64,000 nucleotides of DNA, taken from NCBI GenBank assembly GCA_044432975.1, contig JAWXUC010000002.1, positions 24,573 through 88,572 on the forward strand, given 5' to 3'. This document shows, one piece after another, positions 7,630 to 17,722 of the stretch. Position 1 is the stretch's first letter. Each line of letters starts with the position of its first letter. The translations under genes were made by a program, and so were the position numbers. Under the pieces are notes generated by a model. It did not search any database, was not told where the DNA came from, and saw only the letters and a program-made list of their open reading frames with translations. The DNA is from Alphaproteobacteria bacterium (GTDB lineage: Bacteria > Pseudomonadota > Alphaproteobacteria > RF32 > CAG-239).

Positions 7630-7950
7630 TTACTCTTTTAAAAACAATCCTAACCTGTGCAAAGCATAACCAATGTCATGAACATAAAATATTGCATGAG
7701 GCACATATTGAACCATGTTAGAAAATGCAGGATTACACATTCCCTTTTGAGCAATGAAAATTGAAGACAAAGCCCATGGCGCACCGCTGGTATTATTGTC
7801 TATAACAACAATCTTATCCCAAAAAACCGTGTCATTAACATTCAAAATTCCAGAGATGTTCATTAAAAAATTAGGGTTAAATGCTTCTTGATATCCATCG
7901 AGCAAATTGTTTTCTTCTAAAAAGTTTTTCACTTCATAAAGTTTCTTCAT
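7630..7950 (-). CDS. small hypothetical protein, paralog A of a tandem pair
   Basis: 106 aa. C-terminus YVHDIGYALHRLGLFLKE matches the neighbour's YVIDIGRAMHELGLFFFE. Has its own downstream hairpin. Confidence 0.5.
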   Translation of the reverse strand: MKKLYEVKNFLEENNLLDGYQEAFNPNFLMNISGILNVNDTVFWDKIVVIDNNTSGAPWALSSIFIAQKGMCNPAFSNMVQYVPHAIFYVHDIGYALHRLGLFLKE

Positions 7951-8042
7951 AATTGTTTGTATTTTATAAGATTAAAAATTTTGATTGAGCAAACTTAATA
8001 AAAGATATTTCTCAAAAGGTCAAGCATAAAATCACCCCCTCT

Positions 8043-8067
8043 GTAGGGGACGCATTGTATGCATCCC
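8043..8067. repeat. REP-like hairpin with GTAGGGGACG head
   Basis: gtaggggacgcattgtatgcatccc, a degenerate copy of the 7553 palindrome. Confidence 0.6.
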
Positions 8068-8129
8068 AAAAGATATCCTTGTATGGACGCCACTCTGGGT
8101 GTCCATAAAAAAACAAATTTATACAATAT

Positions 8130-8162
8130 AAAAAAGCCCCCACAGAAAAACTGTGAGGGGTA
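8130..8162 (-). terminator. rho-independent terminator (minus strand) after small paralog B
   Basis: cccccacag/ctgtgagggg stem, with A6 on the plus strand giving a U-tract on the minus strand. Confidence 0.5.
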
Positions 8163-8189
8163 AAAAGTTAATAATTACTAGGAAAACAA

Positions 8190-8519
8190 TTATTCAAAAA
8201 AGAATAACCCTAGTTCATGCATTGCACGTCCAATATCTATTACATAAATAACAACAGACGGAACACCCTTTAGTGCTTTGTGATACTCCTCTGATATTGT
8301 CCACTCCTGAACTAAAAAAACAACCGCAGTTGTTCTTTCAAAAACGCTGTCCGCATAAATAGGAACTATTTTGTCGTTATGCGGATGATTATCATCACGA
8401 GCAAAATCAACAATGTTTTTATCTCTAGGAATTTCTGACATTACGTTTATTTCGCAAGCAGCAAAAAGTTTTTTTTCTTTTAGACGATCAATGCAAGGCA
8501 TTAGATTTTTCATAAGCAT
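8190..8519 (-). CDS. small hypothetical protein, paralog B of a tandem pair
   Basis: 109 aa with a C-terminal block shared with 7630-7950. Confidence 0.5.
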   Translation of the reverse strand: MLMKNLMPCIDRLKEKKLFAACEINVMSEIPRDKNIVDFARDDNHPHNDKIVPIYADSVFERTTAVVFLVQEWTISEEYHKALKGVPSVVIYVIDIGRAMHELGLFFFE

Positions 8520-8613
8520 TTATTTTTATAAGGTTAATTATTTGATTTGCTTACTAATATACACTTTTTGTAAATTTTGTCAATAAAAAAATAAAAAAAA
8601 TTAAAAAAAAGAC

Positions 8614-8641
8614 TTGCCAAACAAATTTTTTATTATATAAA
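8614..8641 (+). promoter_or_regulatory. promoter candidate for tRNA-Gln
   Basis: TTGCCA, 16-nt spacer, TATAAA, ending 12 nt before the mature tRNA 5' end. Confidence 0.45.
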
Positions 8642-8653
8642 TGTCTCTGTGAT

Positions 8654-8728
8654 TGGGCTGTCGCCAAGTGGTAAGGCACCGGTTTTTGGTATCGGCATTC
8701 GTTGGTTCGAATCCAGCCAGCCCAGCCA
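8654..8728 (+). tRNA. tRNA-Gln (anticodon UUG)
   Basis: Hand-folded cloverleaf. Acceptor TGGGCTG/CAGCCCA with the U1:A72 pair typical of tRNA-Gln. D-stem GCC/GGC. Anticodon stem CCGGT/ATCGG with loop TTTTGGT, giving anticodon TTG. T-arm GTTGG-TTCGAAT-CCAGC, discriminator G, encoded CCA. Confidence 0.8.
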
Positions 8729-9088
8729 AAATAAAAAACGTTCCTTTTGGGAGCGTTTTTTTGTTATATAACAAACACTTATCCGGAGTTCGAAAATCGC
8801 TTTTCAAAAAAGCAATTTTTTTGATAATTTCCGAACCAATTTTTATTAAAACCTTGTTTTTGCTATATTTGCATTTTTGATGTTGGGAGTTTTTGTGGGT
8901 TCGAATCTAGCGAGGGTGTTTGATAAATTTTAAGATAAAAATTAACAGTTTACTTTTTAATTCTTCTATGCTATTAAAGAATCAATCAAAAAATTATGAA
9001 TATACTATTATGGAAAGAAAGTTAGCAAAATCTAACACCTGTAATAGTACAAAGAAAATGAATATTAATCTTTTAAAATTATTATATT

Positions 9089-9925
9089 ATGAAAAAGTTA
9101 TTTAAAACATTATTTGCTTTTTTTAGCAACAAAAAAGAAGAGCAGTTTAAAGAAGAGCAGTTTAAAGAACTAATCAATTTAGCTGTAGCGATTGGAGAAA
9201 TAAAGCTTATTGAGGATTACTTAAACGTAAATAAGCTATCTACGCAAATGGAAAAAGTCTTGCTTTCTGCCATTATAAAACACAGTTTGATAATAAAAGT
9301 GTCTGAGCCTTTGTTAAAAACTTTTCAGCAATTCAAAGGATCTGAAGATGATAGCAAAAAATTAAATGAGCTTTATTTAGATAGAATAATAAAATTCTTT
9401 GATGATCGTTATTTTATGACTTATAAATTAAATTCTTTTACAAAAAACTTGTCAATCGTTTTTTCTTTGCCGTCTAGCTTTGATGAGTTAAAAAATACTT
9501 TAATTAAAGATTTGATGAAAAATAAACTTACAGTAGAGTACTTCATTAATGACGATTTTTCAAAGTTCAATGGTTTTTATTGTTTTACACCAATGATGGA
9601 GAGGTATTTAATAAAAAGCGTTAAAGAAGAAAAAATTTCTTATGGAGTTTTATATTTTTATTTAAGCCAGATTGAAAGAGAATTTTATGTTGTTAAAAAT
9701 ACCATTCAGGTAGGACGCCTTCCTTTTGAAAAGAGAGAAATATCTGGGTTTGAGAGCGAGATGATTATCTTACTTTTAGATTCAGGATATACGGATTTAT
9801 ATAAAATAGTCCTTTTCTTAAAAGAAAGATGTGCAATTTCACCACTACTTAAAGATAAATTGCAATCTTTTAAGGAAAATGCAGATGAAAAATTACAGGC
9901 ACTATATGGCTTGTCTATTCTCTAA
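9089..9925 (+). CDS. hypothetical protein; island cargo
   Basis: 278 aa with no recognisable motif. Contains an in-frame 15-bp tandem repeat (KEEQF x2). Followed by a terminator. Confidence 0.45.
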   Translation: MKKLFKTLFAFFSNKKEEQFKEEQFKELINLAVAIGEIKLIEDYLNVNKLSTQMEKVLLSAIIKHSLIIKVSEPLLKTFQQFKGSEDDSKKLNELYLDRIIKFFDDRYFMTYKLNSFTKNLSIVFSLPSSFDELKNTLIKDLMKNKLTVEYFINDDFSKFNGFYCFTPMMERYLIKSVKEEKISYGVLYFYLSQIEREFYVVKNTIQVGRLPFEKREISGFESEMIILLLDSGYTDLYKIVLFLKERCAISPLLKDKLQSFKENADEKLQALYGLSIL

Positions 9926-9929
9926 TTAA

Positions 9930-9968
9930 AAAAGAGTACCAGAATTAAATCTGATACTCTTTTTTTTG
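9930..9968 (+). terminator. rho-independent terminator
   Basis: agagta/tactct stem followed by a T9 tract. Confidence 0.55.
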
Positions 9969-10258
9969 ACTCAGATTAAATAAGTTTGCTTTTGGTTGTA
10001 GATTGCCTACATTAAAAATCCCAGCGTGCTTGTAGCTGATTTATGACTCAATAACGACTATCTTATAAAAAAATATTCCACGAAGGAGCGAGAGCGACGA
10101 CCCTGCAACTGAAATGTTGCCCCACGGGGCAGAAATCTCAAAAATCAAAAAGCGCCCTTGGGGCAGGGTTTTAAAATAAAAATACCTCAGAACATTGAAA
10201 ATGCAGGAAAACAATCTGAGATTTCTGTTTATATATATACGTTAAATATAATTAAAAG

Positions 10259-10957
10259 TCAATCTTCTTGCCAAGAGGTTGGACGAGTTGCGATAATGTT
10301 ATCACTATCATCTTTTATAACATCATCAAATTGAGATAACCTCAAGGCTTTCATATCAATTTTTCTAATTACTTTACTTGTAAACTCTTGTATAAAGTCA
10401 TAACAAATATTTGAATGAGGACATAAAATTAAAATCTTTTTATTAAGTTGAGTTACAATTTTAATTGGCTCTAGTAAATCTGAATCATTTGTGACAATCA
10501 CAGCCATATCAAAATTATTTTGGCAAGCATCAAAGACTAAATGTGATGCTAAATTAACATCAGAACCTTTTTCTTCTGTTTTGATAACATTTGCAAATGT
10601 AATAGGATTTGTAACGGGGTGCAAAGGCATTGAAACTTTGTGTTTATAAAACTTGCCTTTGTGAATTGATAAATTTTCAATAGAGCTTAAAGCTTTGAAA
10701 TATTCTTGCTGTCTTATTGGGCTTTTATCGCCTTCAAACAAAGCTTGAACTTCTGCTGTATAAAAATTAATTGCTTCAAGAGAAAAGTCGCCTTTTAGAT
10801 AATAAGAAATTAAGGCTTCAACATTTAGCCACCTTACAGCTTTTTTTGATTGTTTAATTTTTTGCTTTACATCTTCAGGTATTGATGATTTAATTTTACC
10901 AGATTTTAATGCTCCATAAAATAAATTATATCCATCAATATATGCTCTTATTCTCAT
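10259..10957 (-). CDS. NYN/LabA-like (PIN-fold) domain protein
   Basis: MRIRAYIDGYNLFY N-terminus and the AVIVTNDSDLLE acidic motif are typical of the NYN/LabA nuclease-like domain. Confidence 0.65.
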   Translation of the reverse strand: MRIRAYIDGYNLFYGALKSGKIKSSIPEDVKQKIKQSKKAVRWLNVEALISYYLKGDFSLEAINFYTAEVQALFEGDKSPIRQQEYFKALSSIENLSIHKGKFYKHKVSMPLHPVTNPITFANVIKTEEKGSDVNLASHLVFDACQNNFDMAVIVTNDSDLLEPIKIVTQLNKKILILCPHSNICYDFIQEFTSKVIRKIDMKALRLSQFDDVIKDDSDNIIATRPTSWQED

Positions 10958-11469
10958 TTTTAGACCTTAAAAAATATGGGGGCATATAGCCCCCTGTTAA
11001 TTCCTTGAAACTAACCGATTACAATACTTAATATAATATAAATTTATAAAATTGTCAATATATATTAAAGTCGTTGTTAAAAATTTAGTCCGAAGATTGC
11101 AAGGCGGAGCCAGCCAAACAGTTAAAAATGATGATTTTTCCTTATTTTCCTAGGCGTTGAGCTGGTTCGAAAATGACTTTTGAAAAATCATCATTTTTTT
11201 TATATTTACGAACCGAGTTGCCGCTCGATGTAATTGAGCGAGCCAGCAGTAGGTCGGCGACAAGAAGATTTCCCGAAGGGATCTTCCGCCAGCCAATTTC
11301 AAAAAATATATTTTTTTTCATCAAGTTACGCACATTTTGCATTTTTATAGCTCTATTTTTAATATGATTATAAAAAATTTTGTAAAATAAAAGTGCCCTT
11401 AGGGCACTTATGTTAGTTTAATATGCCATATTTTCTTGCTCCTATTAAAATTTTTTAACAATTGAAATT

Positions 11470-11523
11470 ATGACACATATTTCAAATTTTAATAGATGAC
11501 ACAAAGTGACACAAACTGACACC
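11470..11523. promoter_or_regulatory. cluster of four TGACACA direct repeats; iteron-like or recombinase/accessory binding sites
   Basis: TGACACA at 11470, 11497, 11507 and 11517, the last three with exact 10-bp phasing. A fifth copy lies near 11616. Located 3' of the serine recombinase gene. Confidence 0.4.
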
Positions 11524-11732
11524 CCTATATAAAAAACAACTTCGCCCCAAGGGCAAAATTACATTAAGGGAAGATCAAATTTGTGTTGGGATTTAGCAAA
11601 ATACTAGTCTTTTGATGACACATTAATAAGTGGAAGTTAAAACCTGTACGCAGCCAGTTAAGAAAATGAACTAACGAATAACCTTCTTACTCCAGAAAGA
11701 TATTGACCTAAAAAATCAATATCTTTTTTTTA

Positions 11733-12335
11733 TTAATACCAATCAACACGAGCTAAATATCTTCTTAATGTTATTGTTTGAACGTCAAGGATTTTGGCGA
11801 TTTTGCGTTGAGATAGTCCTTTATCTAATAAATTCTTTATTTTTCTTGAGTTCTTAGCAAGTTTTAATTTTTTTGATTGTGCAGATAAGGGACGGCCTAG
11901 TTTTTTGCCGTTTGCTCTAACGCTATCTAATGAGGCCTTTGTGCGTTGAGAGATTAGGTTTCTTTCTATTTCTGCTGACAAACCAAATGCAAATGCCATC
12001 ACCTTGGATTGTATATCATTGCCTAAAGAATAATTTTCTTTGATTGTGATAATTTTGCAACCTTTAGACAAGCAATTTTCTAGTATTTTCATAACTTCTA
12101 GCAAAGAACGACCTAGCCTTGATATTTCTGTTGAGATTAACATATCGCCTTCTTGCAATTCTTCTAACAAAGTGCCTAGTTTTCTTTTATTTAATGATTT
12201 TCTTGAAGATATAGTTTCTTCAACCCAGCGATTTATTGTAATATTATTGGCTTTTGCATATTTTTTAATCTCAAATTTTTGATGTTCTGTTGTTTGTTTA
12301 TTGGAACTAACTCTAATATATCCCACAATTTGCAT
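11733..12335 (-). CDS. small serine recombinase (resolvase/invertase family; Hin/Gin/TnpR-like)
   Basis: 200 aa. MQIVGYIRVSSNKQ catalytic-serine N-terminus, the LISTEISRLGRS motif, and a C-terminal HTH (LSQRKIAKILDVQTITLRRY). Confidence 0.8.
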   Translation of the reverse strand: MQIVGYIRVSSNKQTTEHQKFEIKKYAKANNITINRWVEETISSRKSLNKRKLGTLLEELQEGDMLISTEISRLGRSLLEVMKILENCLSKGCKIITIKENYSLGNDIQSKVMAFAFGLSAEIERNLISQRTKASLDSVRANGKKLGRPLSAQSKKLKLAKNSRKIKNLLDKGLSQRKIAKILDVQTITLRRYLARVDWY

Positions 12336-12534
12336 ATAATTTTATCCTTTATAGTTGTTGATTTTGCTTTATTTTAACCTCAAAAAGTGAGGCAATTTAA
12401 TAGAACAATTATGTCAACCCATTTTTTAGTTGTTATAATTTATTTTTCTGGGAAGAACAAACCATTAGCAAATCAAAGGCTTTTAAGCATTTCAAGGTTT
12501 TTATTTAACTCTTCTTTTAATACAAATTTATAGA

Positions 12535-12564
12535 TGATACACAATTGTTGGTTTGTGTATCATA
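12535..12564. promoter_or_regulatory. perfect 11-bp inverted repeat with an 8-bp spacer between the recombinase and autotransporter genes
   Basis: atgatacacaa-ttgttggt-ttgtgtatcat. The half-site tagatgaYacacaa also occurs at 11493, on the other side of the recombinase gene. Confidence 0.35.
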
Positions 12565-12622
12565 TCGCCATAAGCCTTTTAGACTTATATTAACGTTAAT
12601 AATAATATAAAGGAAACAACTT

Positions 12623-15217
12623 ATGAAACTTTCAAAAACAGGAATTGTTGCTTTATCAAAGCAATATCGCTCTGTACTAAAAAAATGTTTTTTAATCAAC
12701 GCAGGTATTTTTATGTTTGCGGCACCAGCTATGGCTGCAGATACACAATTTATAGATACAAATGAAACTATAGAGCAATTAACTGGCACTTATGAAAAAT
12801 ACACAACTCCACAAGCATTTTATGGACAAGGCGGTGCTATTAGCAACTCAGGAACAATTAATAATGTAGAAGCAACTTTTTCAAACAATAGTGCAGTTTC
12901 TTCTACTAATATAGGCATGGGTGGTGCTATTTTTAATAATAACAAAATTGAAGAAATAAATTTAAGTACTTTTTCTAATAATGATTCAATTCTTGCTGGT
13001 GGTGCAATAACAAATACAGCAAACGGCAACATTGATAAAATTTCAAATTCAAAATTTAATAAGAATAAATCAATAACTGGTGGTGCAATTTATAATGCAG
13101 GAACAATCTCATTAATAGAAAAAGTAACATTATCTAGCAATGCTGCAATAAATGAAGGTGGTGCAATTTACTCAACAAATGGTCTTGATGTTGCTGACTC
13201 AAATTTTTCAACAAACTCTGCAAATTATGGTGGGTCGATTTCTGTTTATGGTGATAGTGCAAATATCTCTGGTTCAACTTTTAACGGAAACTTTACAAAC
13301 ACAACAAGTAATGAAGAATACTCTGAAGGAGGCGCGATTTATTCTGAAGCAGATGAATTAACTATTACTGACTCAACTTTTGAGAATAATAAAGCACTAA
13401 CTAATGATGGTTGGGGTGGTGCAATAAGCTCTTATAACAATACTGCAATCTCAAATTCAACATTTATAAACAACTCTGCAAATAATGCTGGAGCATTATC
13501 TTTGGCTGATAATGCTAGCATAAAAGGTTCAAAATTTACTGGCAACTCTGCAACCAATCAAGGAGGAGCAATTTTTTCATATGGCGCAACATTATCAATA
13601 AGCGACACTTTATTTGAATCAAATACAAGTAAAAAAATTGGTGGAGCTATTATGAATGATGGTAATTTAACATTAACAGATGTTACTTTTGATGGCAACT
13701 CTGCAAAATATGGTGGCGCTATTTATAATGAAGATGAAAGTTCTTTAACATTAAAAGGGACAACAACACTTGCAACTGCTACAGACACGATATACAATGC
13801 TTCTGATGCAAAAATTAATGTTTCTTCTGGTGCAAATCTTATAAATAACTCGATCATATCAAATAATGGAACATTTACATTTGAAAATGGTTCTTCTTAT
13901 GAATTTGCTTATGATTCTGGTTATGTTGATGGTACAATGACATTGAATGGAAATGTTAATCTAAGCACAATTATTGCAAACGGAACAGCTGATGGATCTT
14001 ATAAATTTGCAGAAGATATTAATGGTGATGGGACTTGGACTTTAGCAAAAAATAATCTTTATAACTTAAGCTTAAACAACACTTCAAATGAAGTTTCTAT
14101 AAAACTTAAATCATCTGATGATATTGCTACTTCTACTGGTGCAACAAACAATGCTGCAAGTGCTGTTTCTGCTGTTATTTCTGGTAGCGCAACAACTTCT
14201 AATGATGCTTTTAATGCTGTAGCAACATCAATCAATAATGGTTTACAATCTTCTGACGCAAGCGTTAGAGCTGCAGCTTTGAAAACAGTTGAACAAATGT
14301 CTTCAGACACAACATCTTCAGCTCAAAGTTCAACAGTAGCTAGTGCTAGTGCAACATTTGGTACAGTAGGAACACGTCTTTCTGGTGGTTCTGTAGCTTC
14401 TTCAACTTCTGGTATGAATTCTGGTGATTCTTATTTAGAAGGTGGTGCTGTTTGGGCTCAAACAATGATTAATACTGCATCATTAAGTGGTTCTAACGGT
14501 TTTGACTCAGATTCAAACGGTGTTGCATTTGGTGCTGAAAAACAAATTAATGATAATGTTAAAGCTGGTATTGGTTATGCTTATAGCAATACAGATATTG
14601 ACACATCTTCTCGTACTACAGACGCTGATACAAATACATTCTTTGTTTATGGTGAATACAAACCATCAAACTGGTATGTAAACGGTATTGCAAGTTATAG
14701 CTTTGCTTCTTATGATGAAAGCTCAAACACAAAAACATCTTCTTATGATGTAGATTCTTTTGGTTTGCAAGCTATGACTGGTTATGATATGACTGTTAAA
14801 AATGTAGATGTTACTCCAGAAGCAGGATTACGTTATGTTAAAGTTTCTCAAGATTCATATACAGATACTTTAGATTCTAAAATCTCTGGTGATGATTCTG
14901 ATATCTTAACTGCTGTTGTTGGTGCAAAAGCAGGTAAAACATTTGCTCTTGAAAATGGTTCAACATTACGTCCAGAAGTTAAAGCTGCTTTAACTTATGA
15001 CTTGTTTAATGATGATGCAAATTCTATTGTAACATTAGTAAACGGTTCTAGTTATACTACAAACGGTGAAGCTTTAGATAAATTCGGAATGGAATTTGGT
15101 GTTGGCTTTACAGCTGATGTTAATGAACAAGTTGAATTATCTTTAGGTTATGAAGGAAAATTCCGTTCAGACTACGAAGATCACACAGGAACATTAAATG
15201 TTAAATATAAATTTTAA
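12623..15217 (+). CDS. autotransporter outer-membrane protein with a Pmp-type (GGAI / FxxN) repeat passenger domain
   Basis: 864 aa. Extended signal peptide ending in AMA. At least 12 GGA[IL] plus FxxN repeats, as in Chlamydia polymorphic membrane proteins. Ser/Thr-rich linker. C-terminal beta-barrel domain ending …LNVKYKF with a terminal aromatic residue. Confidence 0.7.
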   Translation: MKLSKTGIVALSKQYRSVLKKCFLINAGIFMFAAPAMAADTQFIDTNETIEQLTGTYEKYTTPQAFYGQGGAISNSGTINNVEATFSNNSAVSSTNIGMGGAIFNNNKIEEINLSTFSNNDSILAGGAITNTANGNIDKISNSKFNKNKSITGGAIYNAGTISLIEKVTLSSNAAINEGGAIYSTNGLDVADSNFSTNSANYGGSISVYGDSANISGSTFNGNFTNTTSNEEYSEGGAIYSEADELTITDSTFENNKALTNDGWGGAISSYNNTAISNSTFINNSANNAGALSLADNASIKGSKFTGNSATNQGGAIFSYGATLSISDTLFESNTSKKIGGAIMNDGNLTLTDVTFDGNSAKYGGAIYNEDESSLTLKGTTTLATATDTIYNASDAKINVSSGANLINNSIISNNGTFTFENGSSYEFAYDSGYVDGTMTLNGNVNLSTIIANGTADGSYKFAEDINGDGTWTLAKNNLYNLSLNNTSNEVSIKLKSSDDIATSTGATNNAASAVSAVISGSATTSNDAFNAVATSINNGLQSSDASVRAAALKTVEQMSSDTTSSAQSSTVASASATFGTVGTRLSGGSVASSTSGMNSGDSYLEGGAVWAQTMINTASLSGSNGFDSDSNGVAFGAEKQINDNVKAGIGYAYSNTDIDTSSRTTDADTNTFFVYGEYKPSNWYVNGIASYSFASYDESSNTKTSSYDVDSFGLQAMTGYDMTVKNVDVTPEAGLRYVKVSQDSYTDTLDSKISGDDSDILTAVVGAKAGKTFALENGSTLRPEVKAALTYDLFNDDANSIVTLVNGSSYTTNGEALDKFGMEFGVGFTADVNEQVELSLGYEGKFRSDYEDHTGTLNVKYKF

Positions 15218-16021: not shown

Positions 16022-17722
16022 ATGTTAAAATTTTTAGAACAATACAAAAAAAACTTCACACCAAAAATAATAGAAATATTATCAAAAGGATATTCTTTAA
16101 GCTTATTTAAACAAGATTGCTTGTCTGGAATAACAGTTGCTGTCGTATCTATTCCATTAGCCATGGCTTTAGCAATAGCTTCTGGTGTTTCTCCTGCGCA
16201 AGGTTTATATACTGCAATTATTGCGGGTTTATTTATTTCTTTATTTGGCGGAAGCAGATATCAAATAGGCGGACCAACAGGAGCTTTTGTTGTTGTTATC
16301 TTTGATATCATAGCAACTTATGGTTATTCTGGATTATTAATCGCAATGATAATTGCAGGCGTTATTTTAATTTTAGCAGGTTTCTTAAAACTAGGCACCT
16401 ATATAAAATATATTCCATATCCTGTTGTAACCGCTTTTACAGCAGGTATTGGCTTGTTATTAATATCAACCCAAGTAAAAGACTTATTAGGACTAAACAT
16501 TACAGAAGTACCAAGTGATTTTGTAGAAAAATGGATGATATATTTTTCAAATTTAAACAATCTAAATATATCTGCGGTTATTGTCAGTATTGTTTCTGTT
16601 TCTAGCATATTTTATATAAAAGCAAAACACCAAAAACTTCCTGCTTTTTTATTAAGTGTAATTATCTCAACAATAATTGTTGCCTTTATAGGGTTAGATG
16701 TAGACACAATAGGTAACAAATTTGGTGAAATACCTCACTTTTTACCAGCGCCAAAATTTCCAGAAATAGAGATGTCATTAGCGTTAAAAGTTTTACCAAG
16801 TGCATTAACAATTGCTTTTTTAACAGGAGTTGAATCTTTATTAAGTGCAACAGTTGTTGATGGCATGAGTGGTGATAACCATAACTCTAACGCAGAATTA
16901 ATAGGCGAAGGGGCTGCAAACTTAATCTGTGCTTGTTTTATGGGAATTCCTGCAACAGGTGCTATTGCAAGAACTGCAACCAATTTCAGAGCCAATGCAT
17001 ATTCTCCTGTATCTGGTGTAATGCAATCTGCCTTTTTAATATTATTTATGCTTTTATTAGCTCCAGCAGCTAAATACATTCCTTTATCTTGCTTAGCCGT
17101 AATTTTAATATTAATCGGCTGGAATATGCTCGGAATAAAAAAAATATTAAATTTAATCAGAGGTCCAAAAGGCGACAGATATACATTAATAGTTACTTTA
17201 TTTTTAACTGTGCTTGTTGACTTAAATGCAGCAATCTCTGTAGGTTTTATTATGGCAAGTGTAATCTTTATGCATAGAATGAGTAAAGAAATAGAAATTG
17301 AAACAGATGAAGAAGTATTAGATGAAAATTATAATGGAAGTGATTTAACAGAAGTTTTAAGAGATCAAGGCGTTGTTTCTTTGCGATTTTCAGGACCATT
17401 ATTTTTTGGCGACGCATCAGAAATCTCTCAGTTTTTAAAAAAAATCAACAAAGCTCCTAAAGTTTTAATTATTAGAATGGGATATGTTCCAATGGTAGAT
17501 GCCAGCGGTGCTAATATTATTGTTGAGTTTGTAAAGAAAATTCAAAAAGATAACGGCAAAATAATTCTTTCAAATGTAAAAAAACAACCTAAAAGGGTTT
17601 TGCATGAAGCCTTCAAAAAAGAAGGAATAGATTATCACACAATTTCTGCAGCATCTACTTTTGAAAATGCATTGAAAATGACAAAAAAATACTTAAAACA
17701 ACAAAAAGATAATCAAATCTAA
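16022..17722 (+). CDS. SulP-family anion transporter with C-terminal STAS domain
   Basis: 566 aa, about 11 TM segments, the SulP signature region (…GGPTGAFVVV…), and a C-terminal STAS-like domain. Confidence 0.8.
   Translation: MLKFLEQYKKNFTPKIIEILSKGYSLSLFKQDCLSGITVAVVSIPLAMALAIASGVSPAQGLYTAIIAGLFISLFGGSRYQIGGPTGAFVVVIFDIIATYGYSGLLIAMIIAGVILILAGFLKLGTYIKYIPYPVVTAFTAGIGLLLISTQVKDLLGLNITEVPSDFVEKWMIYFSNLNNLNISAVIVSIVSVSSIFYIKAKHQKLPAFLLSVIISTIIVAFIGLDVDTIGNKFGEIPHFLPAPKFPEIEMSLALKVLPSALTIAFLTGVESLLSATVVDGMSGDNHNSNAELIGEGAANLICACFMGIPATGAIARTATNFRANAYSPVSGVMQSAFLILFMLLLAPAAKYIPLSCLAVILILIGWNMLGIKKILNLIRGPKGDRYTLIVTLFLTVLVDLNAAISVGFIMASVIFMHRMSKEIEIETDEEVLDENYNGSDLTEVLRDQGVVSLRFSGPLFFGDASEISQFLKKINKAPKVLIIRMGYVPMVDASGANIIVEFVKKIQKDNGKIILSNVKKQPKRVLHEAFKKEGIDYHTISAASTFENALKMTKKYLKQQKDNQI

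Follow-up and report, generated by a model that had tools for sequence, protein, structure and literature searches.

Among described systems, the Mpi system of Bacteroides fragilis and B. intestinalis is the closest by protein family to a locus found in a 64,000-nucleotide (nt) stretch of DNA, hereafter the window, from an alphaproteobacterial genome of the RF32/CAG-239 lineage (assembly GCA_044432975.1, contig JAWXUC010000002.1, positions 24,573 to 88,572, forward strand). Both involve small serine recombinases, and the targets are in each case surface structures of gut bacteria. In Bacteroides, one enzyme acts in trans on at least 13 dispersed loci (PMC5903667), and the promoter lies wholly within a short invertible segment, of 183–186 base pairs (bp) in B. 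intestinalis (PMC8375218). The locus in the window comprises a gene for a 200-residue Mpi-like recombinase, two inverted sites (A and B) that enclose 142 bp, and a gene for a Pmp-type autotransporter, and it probably works as a switch in which site-specific inversion brings about phase variation of the surface protein. In contrast to the Bacteroides layout, each recombinase has a switch and a target of its own beside it, the crossover site divides the predicted promoter, and the host is an alphaproteobacterium. The module thus appears to be a cis-linked, Mpi-type invertible promoter, apparently split by its crossover site, in uncultured gut Alphaproteobacteria. The mpi gene of P. distasonis, unlike the gene here, has no such switch upstream.

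More distantly, the Hin/hix system of Salmonella flagella and the Gin/gix system of phage Mu likewise employ serine invertases with a C-terminal helix-turn-helix. Their crossover sites are imperfectly palindromic around a 2-bp centre, and inversion joins a promoter to a surface-protein gene or cuts it off, as is predicted here; the site A core, AAACC-AA, presumably resembles the hix and gix half-sites. In those systems (and in the Din layout) the recombinase gene lies within a large segment of about 1 kilobase (kb) or 3 kb, or at its edge, and inversion involves a Fis-dependent enhancer; the segment here measures 142 bp and the recombinase gene lies outside the flipped DNA. Resolvases of the Tn3/gamma-delta group share the catalytic domain, with PDB matches near E 1e-9, and, as here, their site precedes the recombinase gene in the space between divergent genes, an arrangement that makes autoregulation possible. 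They differ in that the present locus has no transposase and no three-subsite res, its sites are inverted rather than direct, and its relatives show inversion rather than deletion. Finally, in the invertons of gut bacteria found by surveys of the PhaseFinder type (Jiang et al. 2019, cited in PMC8375218), a short invertible promoter between inverted repeats, with an adjoining recombinase, regulates genes for the surface or for adhesion in bacteria that live with hosts. For the Rs-D84/Enterousia group, the searchable literature yielded no account of switches of this kind. The parts of the locus are as follows.

11699–11723: probable terminator hairpin, GATATTGA n9 TCAATATC, directly past the recombinase stop codon (read from the sequence).
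11733–12335, minus strand: Mpi-like small serine recombinase of 200 amino acids (Pfam Resolvase; NCBIfam NF009949).
12394–12420: site B, the recombination site near the recombinase, centred on 12404–12405 (family motif).
12406–12547: invertible segment (switch) of 142 bp, in configuration 1 (comparison of 50 loci).
12412–12417, minus strand in the present state: −35 box TTGACA at the site-B end of the switch, preceded by an A-tract at 12421–12426.
12534–12563: site A, the far recombination site, centred on 12548–12549.
12558–12563, plus strand: −10 box TATCAT, in fixed DNA within the outer arm of site A.
12623–15217, plus strand: autotransporter gene (Chlam_PMP repeats and beta-barrel; Pfam), the predicted target of the switch.

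The recombinase carries a Pfam Resolvase domain (residues 3–145, 120 bits) followed by HTH_38/HTH_23 (residues 165–196). It matches NCBIfam NF009949, the 'master DNA invertase Mpi family', with 265.2 bits (E 3.6e-79, model positions 2–195 of 203), which is 7 bits short of the curated equivalog cut-off of 272; the next family scores 46 bits. Its best PDB match is Gin (E 6e-14), with which the motifs GYIRVSS and RLGRS align, and the open reading frame is intact, with the catalytic Ser and Arg motifs kept. The nearest annotated plasmid-borne proteins (47–56% identity) are all named Mpi family, as are, in NCBI, proteins 72–74% identical to it, and Hin-type phage invertases share 33% identity. A preliminary description, made from the sequence of the window alone, had assigned the protein to the Hin/TnpR type; judged by these sequence matches, it is an Mpi-like serine invertase and not a relative of Hin or TnpR. 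Homologues at 64–76% identity are plentiful in metagenome-assembled genomes (MAGs) of gut Alphaproteobacteria ('Candidatus Enterousia' and relatives), with several recombinase-switch modules per genome.

The annotated family has its own heterogeneity. The 'Mpi family' genes of an Aureispira anguillae plasmid (pAUEb, L097) and of Prevotella nigrescens (L096) sit beside a Tn3-family transposase or a restriction-modification methylase, and for this reason the annotated Mpi family is broader than the master promoter invertases. One contig titled Bacteroides fragilis (CAVGNU010000004.1, L039) was considered as a true Bacteroides Mpi locus and rejected, since it has a strong Shine-Dalgarno sequence and carries the alphaproteobacterial module (68% identity); it is probably mis-binned or mislabelled.

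To place the two sites, 80 related recombinase loci from other genomes were compared (82 loci for the site B motif); 50 loci, including the window and its relatives L005 and L006 (98% and 75% identical, respectively), carry both sites. Site A, with the sequence ATGATACACAA TTG-TT-GGT TTGTGTATCAT (central TT), is the inverted repeat that the preliminary description had singled out: the perfect 11-bp arms and 8-bp spacer are as reported there, and the coordinates shift by one, to 12534–12563. It ends 59 bp ahead of the autotransporter ATG. Perfect inverted repeats of the hairpin type with 11-bp arms number about nine in the window (0.9 in shuffles) and are mostly terminators, and site A stands out by its conservation in relatives, not by its form. 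Alignments with L005 and L006 show it kept alongside the recombinase gene even with a different gene on its far side, and across the 80 loci the pattern ..ACAAACC-AA-CGATTGT.. recurs 170–250 bp upstream of the recombinase start with constant polarity. When metagenome contigs were scanned with the site A pattern alone, a recombinase homologue was found 168–229 nt away on the expected strand at 40 of 44 evaluable hits, the other four lying in unrelated high-GC DNA. No further copy of site A with up to three mismatches is present in the 64-kb window. This linkage, and the single site A, give no sign that the window recombinase behaves as a 'master' enzyme in trans.

Site B is still better conserved than site A. 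In the window it reads GGGTTGACATAATTG-TT-CTATTAAATT on the recombinase-sense strand, and 72 nt separate its centre from the downstream ATG of the recombinase; the motif GTTGATTTAATCG-TT-CTATTAAAT is found 26–72 nt (mostly 44–72) upstream of the start codon in nearly all 82 loci. Both sites are imperfect palindromes, and their central dinucleotides are AA and TT on one and the same strand; the sites are therefore inverted relative to each other. The spacing between them is confined to 114–149 bp in the 50 loci, typically about 145 bp.

The site cores also connect the family to Bacteroides. The B. fragilis repeats have the form ARACGTTCGTN, and the repeat GTTCGTTTAA flanks the 183–186-bp promoters of B. 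intestinalis (PMC8375218). Relatives of the window locus carry the related cores CGTTCGTTTAA and AAACGTTCGT, and a core variant in L039 and L065, CGTTCGTTTAAAA, contains the B. intestinalis repeat, that of L065 additionally containing the B. fragilis core ARACGTTCGTN. The cores in the window itself, AACAATTG and AATTGTTC, match the ARACGTTCGTN type only loosely.

Two relatives have switch-like site pairs that do not adjoin a recombinase, a rare arrangement. In L030 (about 17413–17560), two A-type sites lie inverted and 132 bp apart, 7.4 kb downstream of the recombinase, and in L045 (about 7714–7875) the switch precedes a 604-amino-acid gene, with the recombinase downstream of that gene. Some enzymes of the family may thus also act at a distance.

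Evidence for inversion comes from the 50 loci with both sites, in which the segment, 114–144 bp long, occurs in two orientations: configuration 1 is found in 38 loci, among them the window, L005 and L006, and configuration 2 in 12. In configuration 1 the interior ends with AAAAAAnnnGTTGATTTAATCG beside site B; in configuration 2 it opens with the exact reverse complement, CGATTAAATCAACATATTTTTT, beside site A, and the inner half-sites are exchanged (left half of site B for right half of site A). The interiors of the two configurations align solely in reverse (0.73–0.77 vs about 0.55). For two loci from different MAGs, L049 and L052, the flanks are collinear at 90–94% identity and the 146-bp interiors are 97.9% identical in reverse only. 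The recombinase gene keeps a fixed orientation relative to the outer half-sites (A-left and B-right) and to the neighbouring gene in 50/50 loci. At the level of sequence comparison, the orientations found among relatives are direct comparative evidence that the segment inverts. Four contigs (L021, L036, L026 and L062) break off no more than 7 nt from the centre of a site, L021 and L036 beginning at the centre of site B, as would be expected from mixed orientations in a sample. The proposal that the autotransporter varies in phase under control of the recombinase, with the inverted repeat as its site, is thereby supported, the loci of the family showing a flipped segment at exactly that place.

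A different geometry had been suggested, in which the invertase flips or excises a segment of about 1 kb, its own gene included, between two copies of the motif tagatgaYacacaa at 11493 and 12530, with nearby TGACACA repeats as binding sites. There is precedent in Hin, whose gene lies inside the invertible segment (PMC5903667). The TGACACA repeats do cluster non-randomly: exact copies stand at 11471, 11497, 11507 and 11616, four of the nine in the window within 152 nt, a density matched by 0 of 20,000 random placements, and in sequence the cluster is similar to site A in its outer arm (TTTGTGT-CAT vs TTTGTGTATCAT). Of the four repeats originally listed, with the last three helically phased, the one at 11517 proves to be TGACACC, so that the middle three form a 10-bp tandem with one imperfect member, and the fourth exact copy is that at 11616. 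However, the motif is exact at 12531 only, the copy at 11493 having two mismatches and no dyad symmetry; both this copy and the TGACACA cluster are missing from L005, despite its 98% identical recombinase. Downstream of the other 81 recombinase genes TGACACA is not enriched, with 5 copies in about 40 kb (the window's 4 excluded), and the cluster is unique to this genome. Above all, the DNA flipped in the family is the 142 bp upstream of the gene, the orientation of the gene itself being constant in all 50 loci. A 1-kb inversion or excision is accordingly extremely improbable, and the partner of site A is not the motif at 11493 but site B at 12394–12420. Nor do the repeats look like the iterons of a replication origin, there being no rep gene and only the three 10-bp-phased copies.

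A smaller unit was likewise considered and rejected: a mobile module of about 975 bp (11586–12563) bounded by site A and TCCCAA has downstream conservation in L005 and L006 only, and no site-like end.

The layout of the segment suggests how inversion would act on transcription. Serine recombinases in general exchange strands at the central dinucleotide of their sites, and the same would hold for sites A and B. The adjacent Mpi-like enzyme, presumably the one that flips the switch, would act on these inverted sites, and recombination of A with B would turn round the intervening 142 bp and leave the recombinase gene outside. The switch bears the A-tract and what appears to be a −35 box, and the putative −10 box stays in fixed DNA beyond site A; the crossover site therefore would fall within the promoter spacer. 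In the present orientation the −35 box faces the recombinase gene, where it lacks a −10 partner, and the autotransporter promoter would be disassembled, for a predicted OFF state. After a flip, AAAAAATGGG-TTGACA-N16-TATCAT would stand 60 bp upstream of the autotransporter ATG, for a predicted ON state. The junctions then expected are GGGTTGACATAATTG-TT-GGTTTGTGTATCAT at site A and GATGATACACAATTG-TT-CTATTAAATTGCC at site B. On the same assignment, the window, Logan contig L001 (found in 11 samples) and L005 are all predicted to be OFF.

The conservation of these elements is consistent with such a scheme. A −35 box of the form TTGAnn (at least 4/6 positions) with AAAAAA ahead of it is found in 44/48 loci, and a −10-like hexamer stands 16–17 nt away across site A after a flip, again in 44/48. 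The neighbouring genes start 25–60 nt past the −10-like hexamer and have Shine-Dalgarno sequences; in the window, AAGGA lies 8 nt ahead of the autotransporter ATG. Simulated inversion of the window yields TTGACA-N16-TATCAT, an 11/12 match to sigma-70, versus 9/12 for ATGATA-N18-TATCAT in the present state.

In about 58 of 66 loci the gene upstream of the switch is divergent and starts at site A. When 68 such upstream neighbours were scanned with Pfam (the window autotransporter included), 14 were found to carry YadA_anchor, 2 Autotransporter, 3 OMP_b-brl, 2 Surface_Ag_2, 2 Opacity and 2 OmpA_membrane domains, and by a crude rule 44/61 upstream neighbours have a signal-peptide-like N-terminus, versus 19/77 downstream neighbours. 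The gene on the site A side in relatives thus usually encodes a secreted or surface protein. The window autotransporter itself scores 158 bits against Pfam Autotransporter and 70.7 bits against Chlam_PMP. Three upstream neighbours (in L040, L051 and L055) have a prepilin-like N-terminus, GRSMIEMLGVLAIIGVLSVGG, and pili, besides adhesins, appear to be under such switches.

On the other side of the switch, a hairpin, CCTCA n5 TGAGG, occupies 12377–12391, in the gap that separates site B from the start codon of the recombinase, and one subgroup of relatives has another hairpin in the same spot, e.g. GAACACTTTTGTGGTGTTC; the hairpin at 12377–12391 could shield the recombinase gene from transcription exiting the switch. 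The terminator-like hairpin at 11699–11723 is unchanged in alignments with L005 and L006. A sigma-70 promoter built by the switch for the recombinase was considered and rejected.

Several observations weigh against the scheme, or against its details as applied to the window. No promoter of the recombinase was identified, there being no consistent −10 partner for it in either switch state. Inside the segment, a sigma-70-like match, ATGTCA-N17-(TG)TATAAT at 12411–12439, scores 10/12 and now faces the autotransporter; this match, which is unconserved in the family, could swap the ON/OFF assignment. The window, L001 and L005 all have the same orientation, the Logan contigs pass uninterrupted through the switch and give no direct sign that the window copy flips, and the 29-mer of the predicted ON junction is absent from the JGI metagenomes, a collection from which the organism is perhaps missing. 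Finally, both sites of the window have the core CAATTG where the family consensus is CGATTG.

The interior match bears on the possibility that the switch is real and its two states are reversed, the interior promoter driving the autotransporter now and facing the recombinase once flipped. The extended −10 TG of that promoter, its plus-strand location as the segment now stands, and the occurrence of some sigma-70-like match at a comparable interior position in about 13/48 loci speak for such a reversal. Its sequence is not conserved in the family alignment, however, and sigma-70-like matches are near the chance level of AT-rich DNA (8 found vs 7.4 in shuffles), whereas the best conserved interior feature is the A-tract and −35 box at the site-B end, with the fixed −10 box kept at the right spacing. 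We regard a reversed assignment as unlikely, and take the present orientation of the window as presumably the OFF one.

Another possibility is a fossil or a plain operator, in which inversion has been lost and the sites bind the recombinase or another protein as a repressor of divergent promoters. Resolvases of the Tn3/gamma-delta group are known to repress from their res sites, and the single orientation in the window, in the 11 samples of L001 and in L005, together with cores that depart from consensus, would be expected of such a relic. Against this stand the whole recombinase reading frame with its catalytic motifs, the dyad symmetry and matching AA/TT centres retained by both window sites, and the inversion seen at the level of the family; moreover, the CAATTG variant is identical at both sites in the window and also in L005. 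Loss of inversion is therefore distinctly improbable, and the inversion switch of the window, by comparison with its relatives, presumably still flips.

The remainder of the stretch between the transfer RNA (tRNA) gene and the autotransporter holds the following features, all outside the switch.

8654–8728, plus strand: tRNA-Gln(UUG) (ARAGORN; Rfam tRNA, 57.5 bits).
8788–8842 (plus strand) and 11165–11219: copies 1 and 2 of a 55-nt palindromic repeat (repeat search).
8892–8914, plus strand: tRNA-like fragment TTTGTGGGTTCGAATCTAGCGAG (similarity to tRNA-Gln).
9089–9925, plus strand: orphan gene of 278 amino acids, function unknown (open reading frame).
10259–10957, minus strand: NYN-domain gene (Pfam NYN, 27.6 bits).
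11471–11622, plus strand: TGACACA cluster, outside the conserved switch.

The preliminary description had listed the tRNA, orphan, NYN, recombinase and autotransporter genes correctly, and had joined the orphan, NYN and recombinase genes into an AT-rich mini-island beside the tRNA. The corresponding proposal, that 8729–12620 is a single mobile island which inserted at tRNA-Gln and owes its movement to the serine recombinase, draws on several features. The stretch lies 3' of the tRNA gene, and 164 bp from that gene the tRNA-like fragment matches the T-arm and acceptor of tRNA-Gln at 19/23 positions, GGTTCGAAT being exact only in the fragment and in the tRNA. The 55-nt repeats, which are direct (71% identical ungapped; 80.8% over 52 nt by blastn), have GGTTCG...CGAACC stems and occur in only two copies in the window, flank the orphan and NYN genes. 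In L008, the closest GTDB relative (recombinase identity 76%), a tRNA-Gln at 14217–14291 lies about 4.2 kb downstream of the recombinase in the same relative orientation, with other, unrelated genes between. The reverse complement of the tRNA-Gln T-arm (8698–8712; CGAACCAACGAATG) also agrees with the family site A core, CAAACCAACGATTG (site A at 12537–12558 in the window), at 12/14 positions.

The composition of the stretch, however, is not deviant: the guanine-plus-cytosine (GC) content is about 30% throughout the window, and 0.25–0.33 at 8.7–12.6 kb versus 0.26–0.39 over the first 24 kb profiled. No integrase is encoded among the window genes, the recombinases of this family show inversion at the switch upstream of their own genes, and the tRNA-like fragment, which cannot form a T-arm, lies ahead of all the supposed island genes; a search of 8000–13000 against Rfam returned the tRNA only. 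In the synteny search for an empty site, SpoU, LptG, NYN, the orphan and the flanking housekeeping genes were found in none of the 80 related loci and no empty-site genome was encountered. These genes do not stay together as a conserved set, and NYN homologues are found alone elsewhere. A tRNA-integrated island moved by this recombinase is thus not supported, and we hold it to be very unlikely; the fragment after the tRNA is present, at 8892–8914, and its reading as the remnant of an integration finds no support. The interval between tRNA-Gln and the recombinase may instead be a variable region, in which the inversion switch merely adjoins the NYN gene, the orphan, the TGACACA cluster and the tRNA, with none of which it is related. 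The 55-nt repeats may mark the borders of an old element or represent a small dispersed repeat, and the likeness of T-arm and site A, as well as the position of tRNA-Gln in L008, may reflect chance or shared ancestry.

The NYN gene and the orphan had further been paired as a possible defence module, of which only a profile match of the NYN protein survives. It matches the PADLOC candidate HEC-09 over the full profile (E 1.5e-35, 120.7 bits, profile positions 3–203 of 203). Its homologues are solitary: one lies between parC and a prephenate dehydratase gene, another beside pfk, another in a prophage tail region. They share only about 45–110 nt of upstream DNA with it, and no conserved partner gene was found among them. 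On this sequence evidence the NYN gene is an independent single-gene accessory element and, by its profile match, a candidate defence gene. The 278-amino-acid frame has no hit in Pfam, NCBIfam or PADLOC and, among 1.84 billion representative proteins, matches itself alone; it contains a perfect 15-bp tandem duplication (9134–9163) by which KEEQF is encoded twice.

Some further features of the region deserve mention. The non-coding DNA at 11095–11310 is GC-richer and strongly structured (folding z −4.07 on the plus and −3.5 on the minus strand) and includes a perfect 17-bp inverted repeat (11124–11140/11182–11198); it has no Rfam match, and NYN loci elsewhere lack it. Another GC-rich patch of this kind occurs at about 10080–10170. 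Ahead of the tRNA, two small adjacent genes on the minus strand (7630–7950 and 8190–8519; 106 and 109 amino acids) have no family match and are paralogous to one another, with 35% identity across 62 residues (E 4e-09); they share a C-terminal ...H.LGLF..E end. Logan contig L001 corresponds exactly to 8998–12666 of the window, and a neighbouring contig, L003, ends at 9027; from these ends, the assembly graphs branch at the 30-mers 8998–9027 and 12637–12666. Inversion or excision between the two ends was considered and rejected, as they do not repeat one another in either inverted or direct orientation and the window has no paralogue of the autotransporter N-terminus. The contig collection lacks the exact autotransporter protein and so yields no alternative upstream junction.

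As regards the broader meaning of the locus, the first lesson concerns annotation: what had looked like an island is a patchwork of unrelated neighbours, and recombinases of the Mpi family are not always master enzymes acting in trans. Members of the Rs-D84/Enterousia group are uncultured and have reduced genomes, under 1 megabase, and they probably rely on a host or on partner cells (PMC12306168). Gut bacteria change their surfaces to a large extent through phase variation with invertible promoters, which is well documented in the Bacteroidales and not in this group. The conserved signature of the module provides a handle on surface variation in metagenomes, where reads can be counted per orientation, and points to adhesins; the predicted layout of a mobile −35 and a fixed −10 is compact and may serve synthetic switches. 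It is enticing to speculate, and we do so tentatively, that genomes of the Rs-D84/Enterousia group carry several self-contained modules of invertase, split promoter and surface gene, in each of which the crossover lies in the promoter spacer, and a single recombination would shift the −35 box and at the same time alter recombinase occupancy, a compact toggle unlike the Bacteroides layout of one master enzyme and whole promoters. Such modules would allow combinatorial variation of the surface, and, with sites so alike, recombination between them could rearrange the chromosome.

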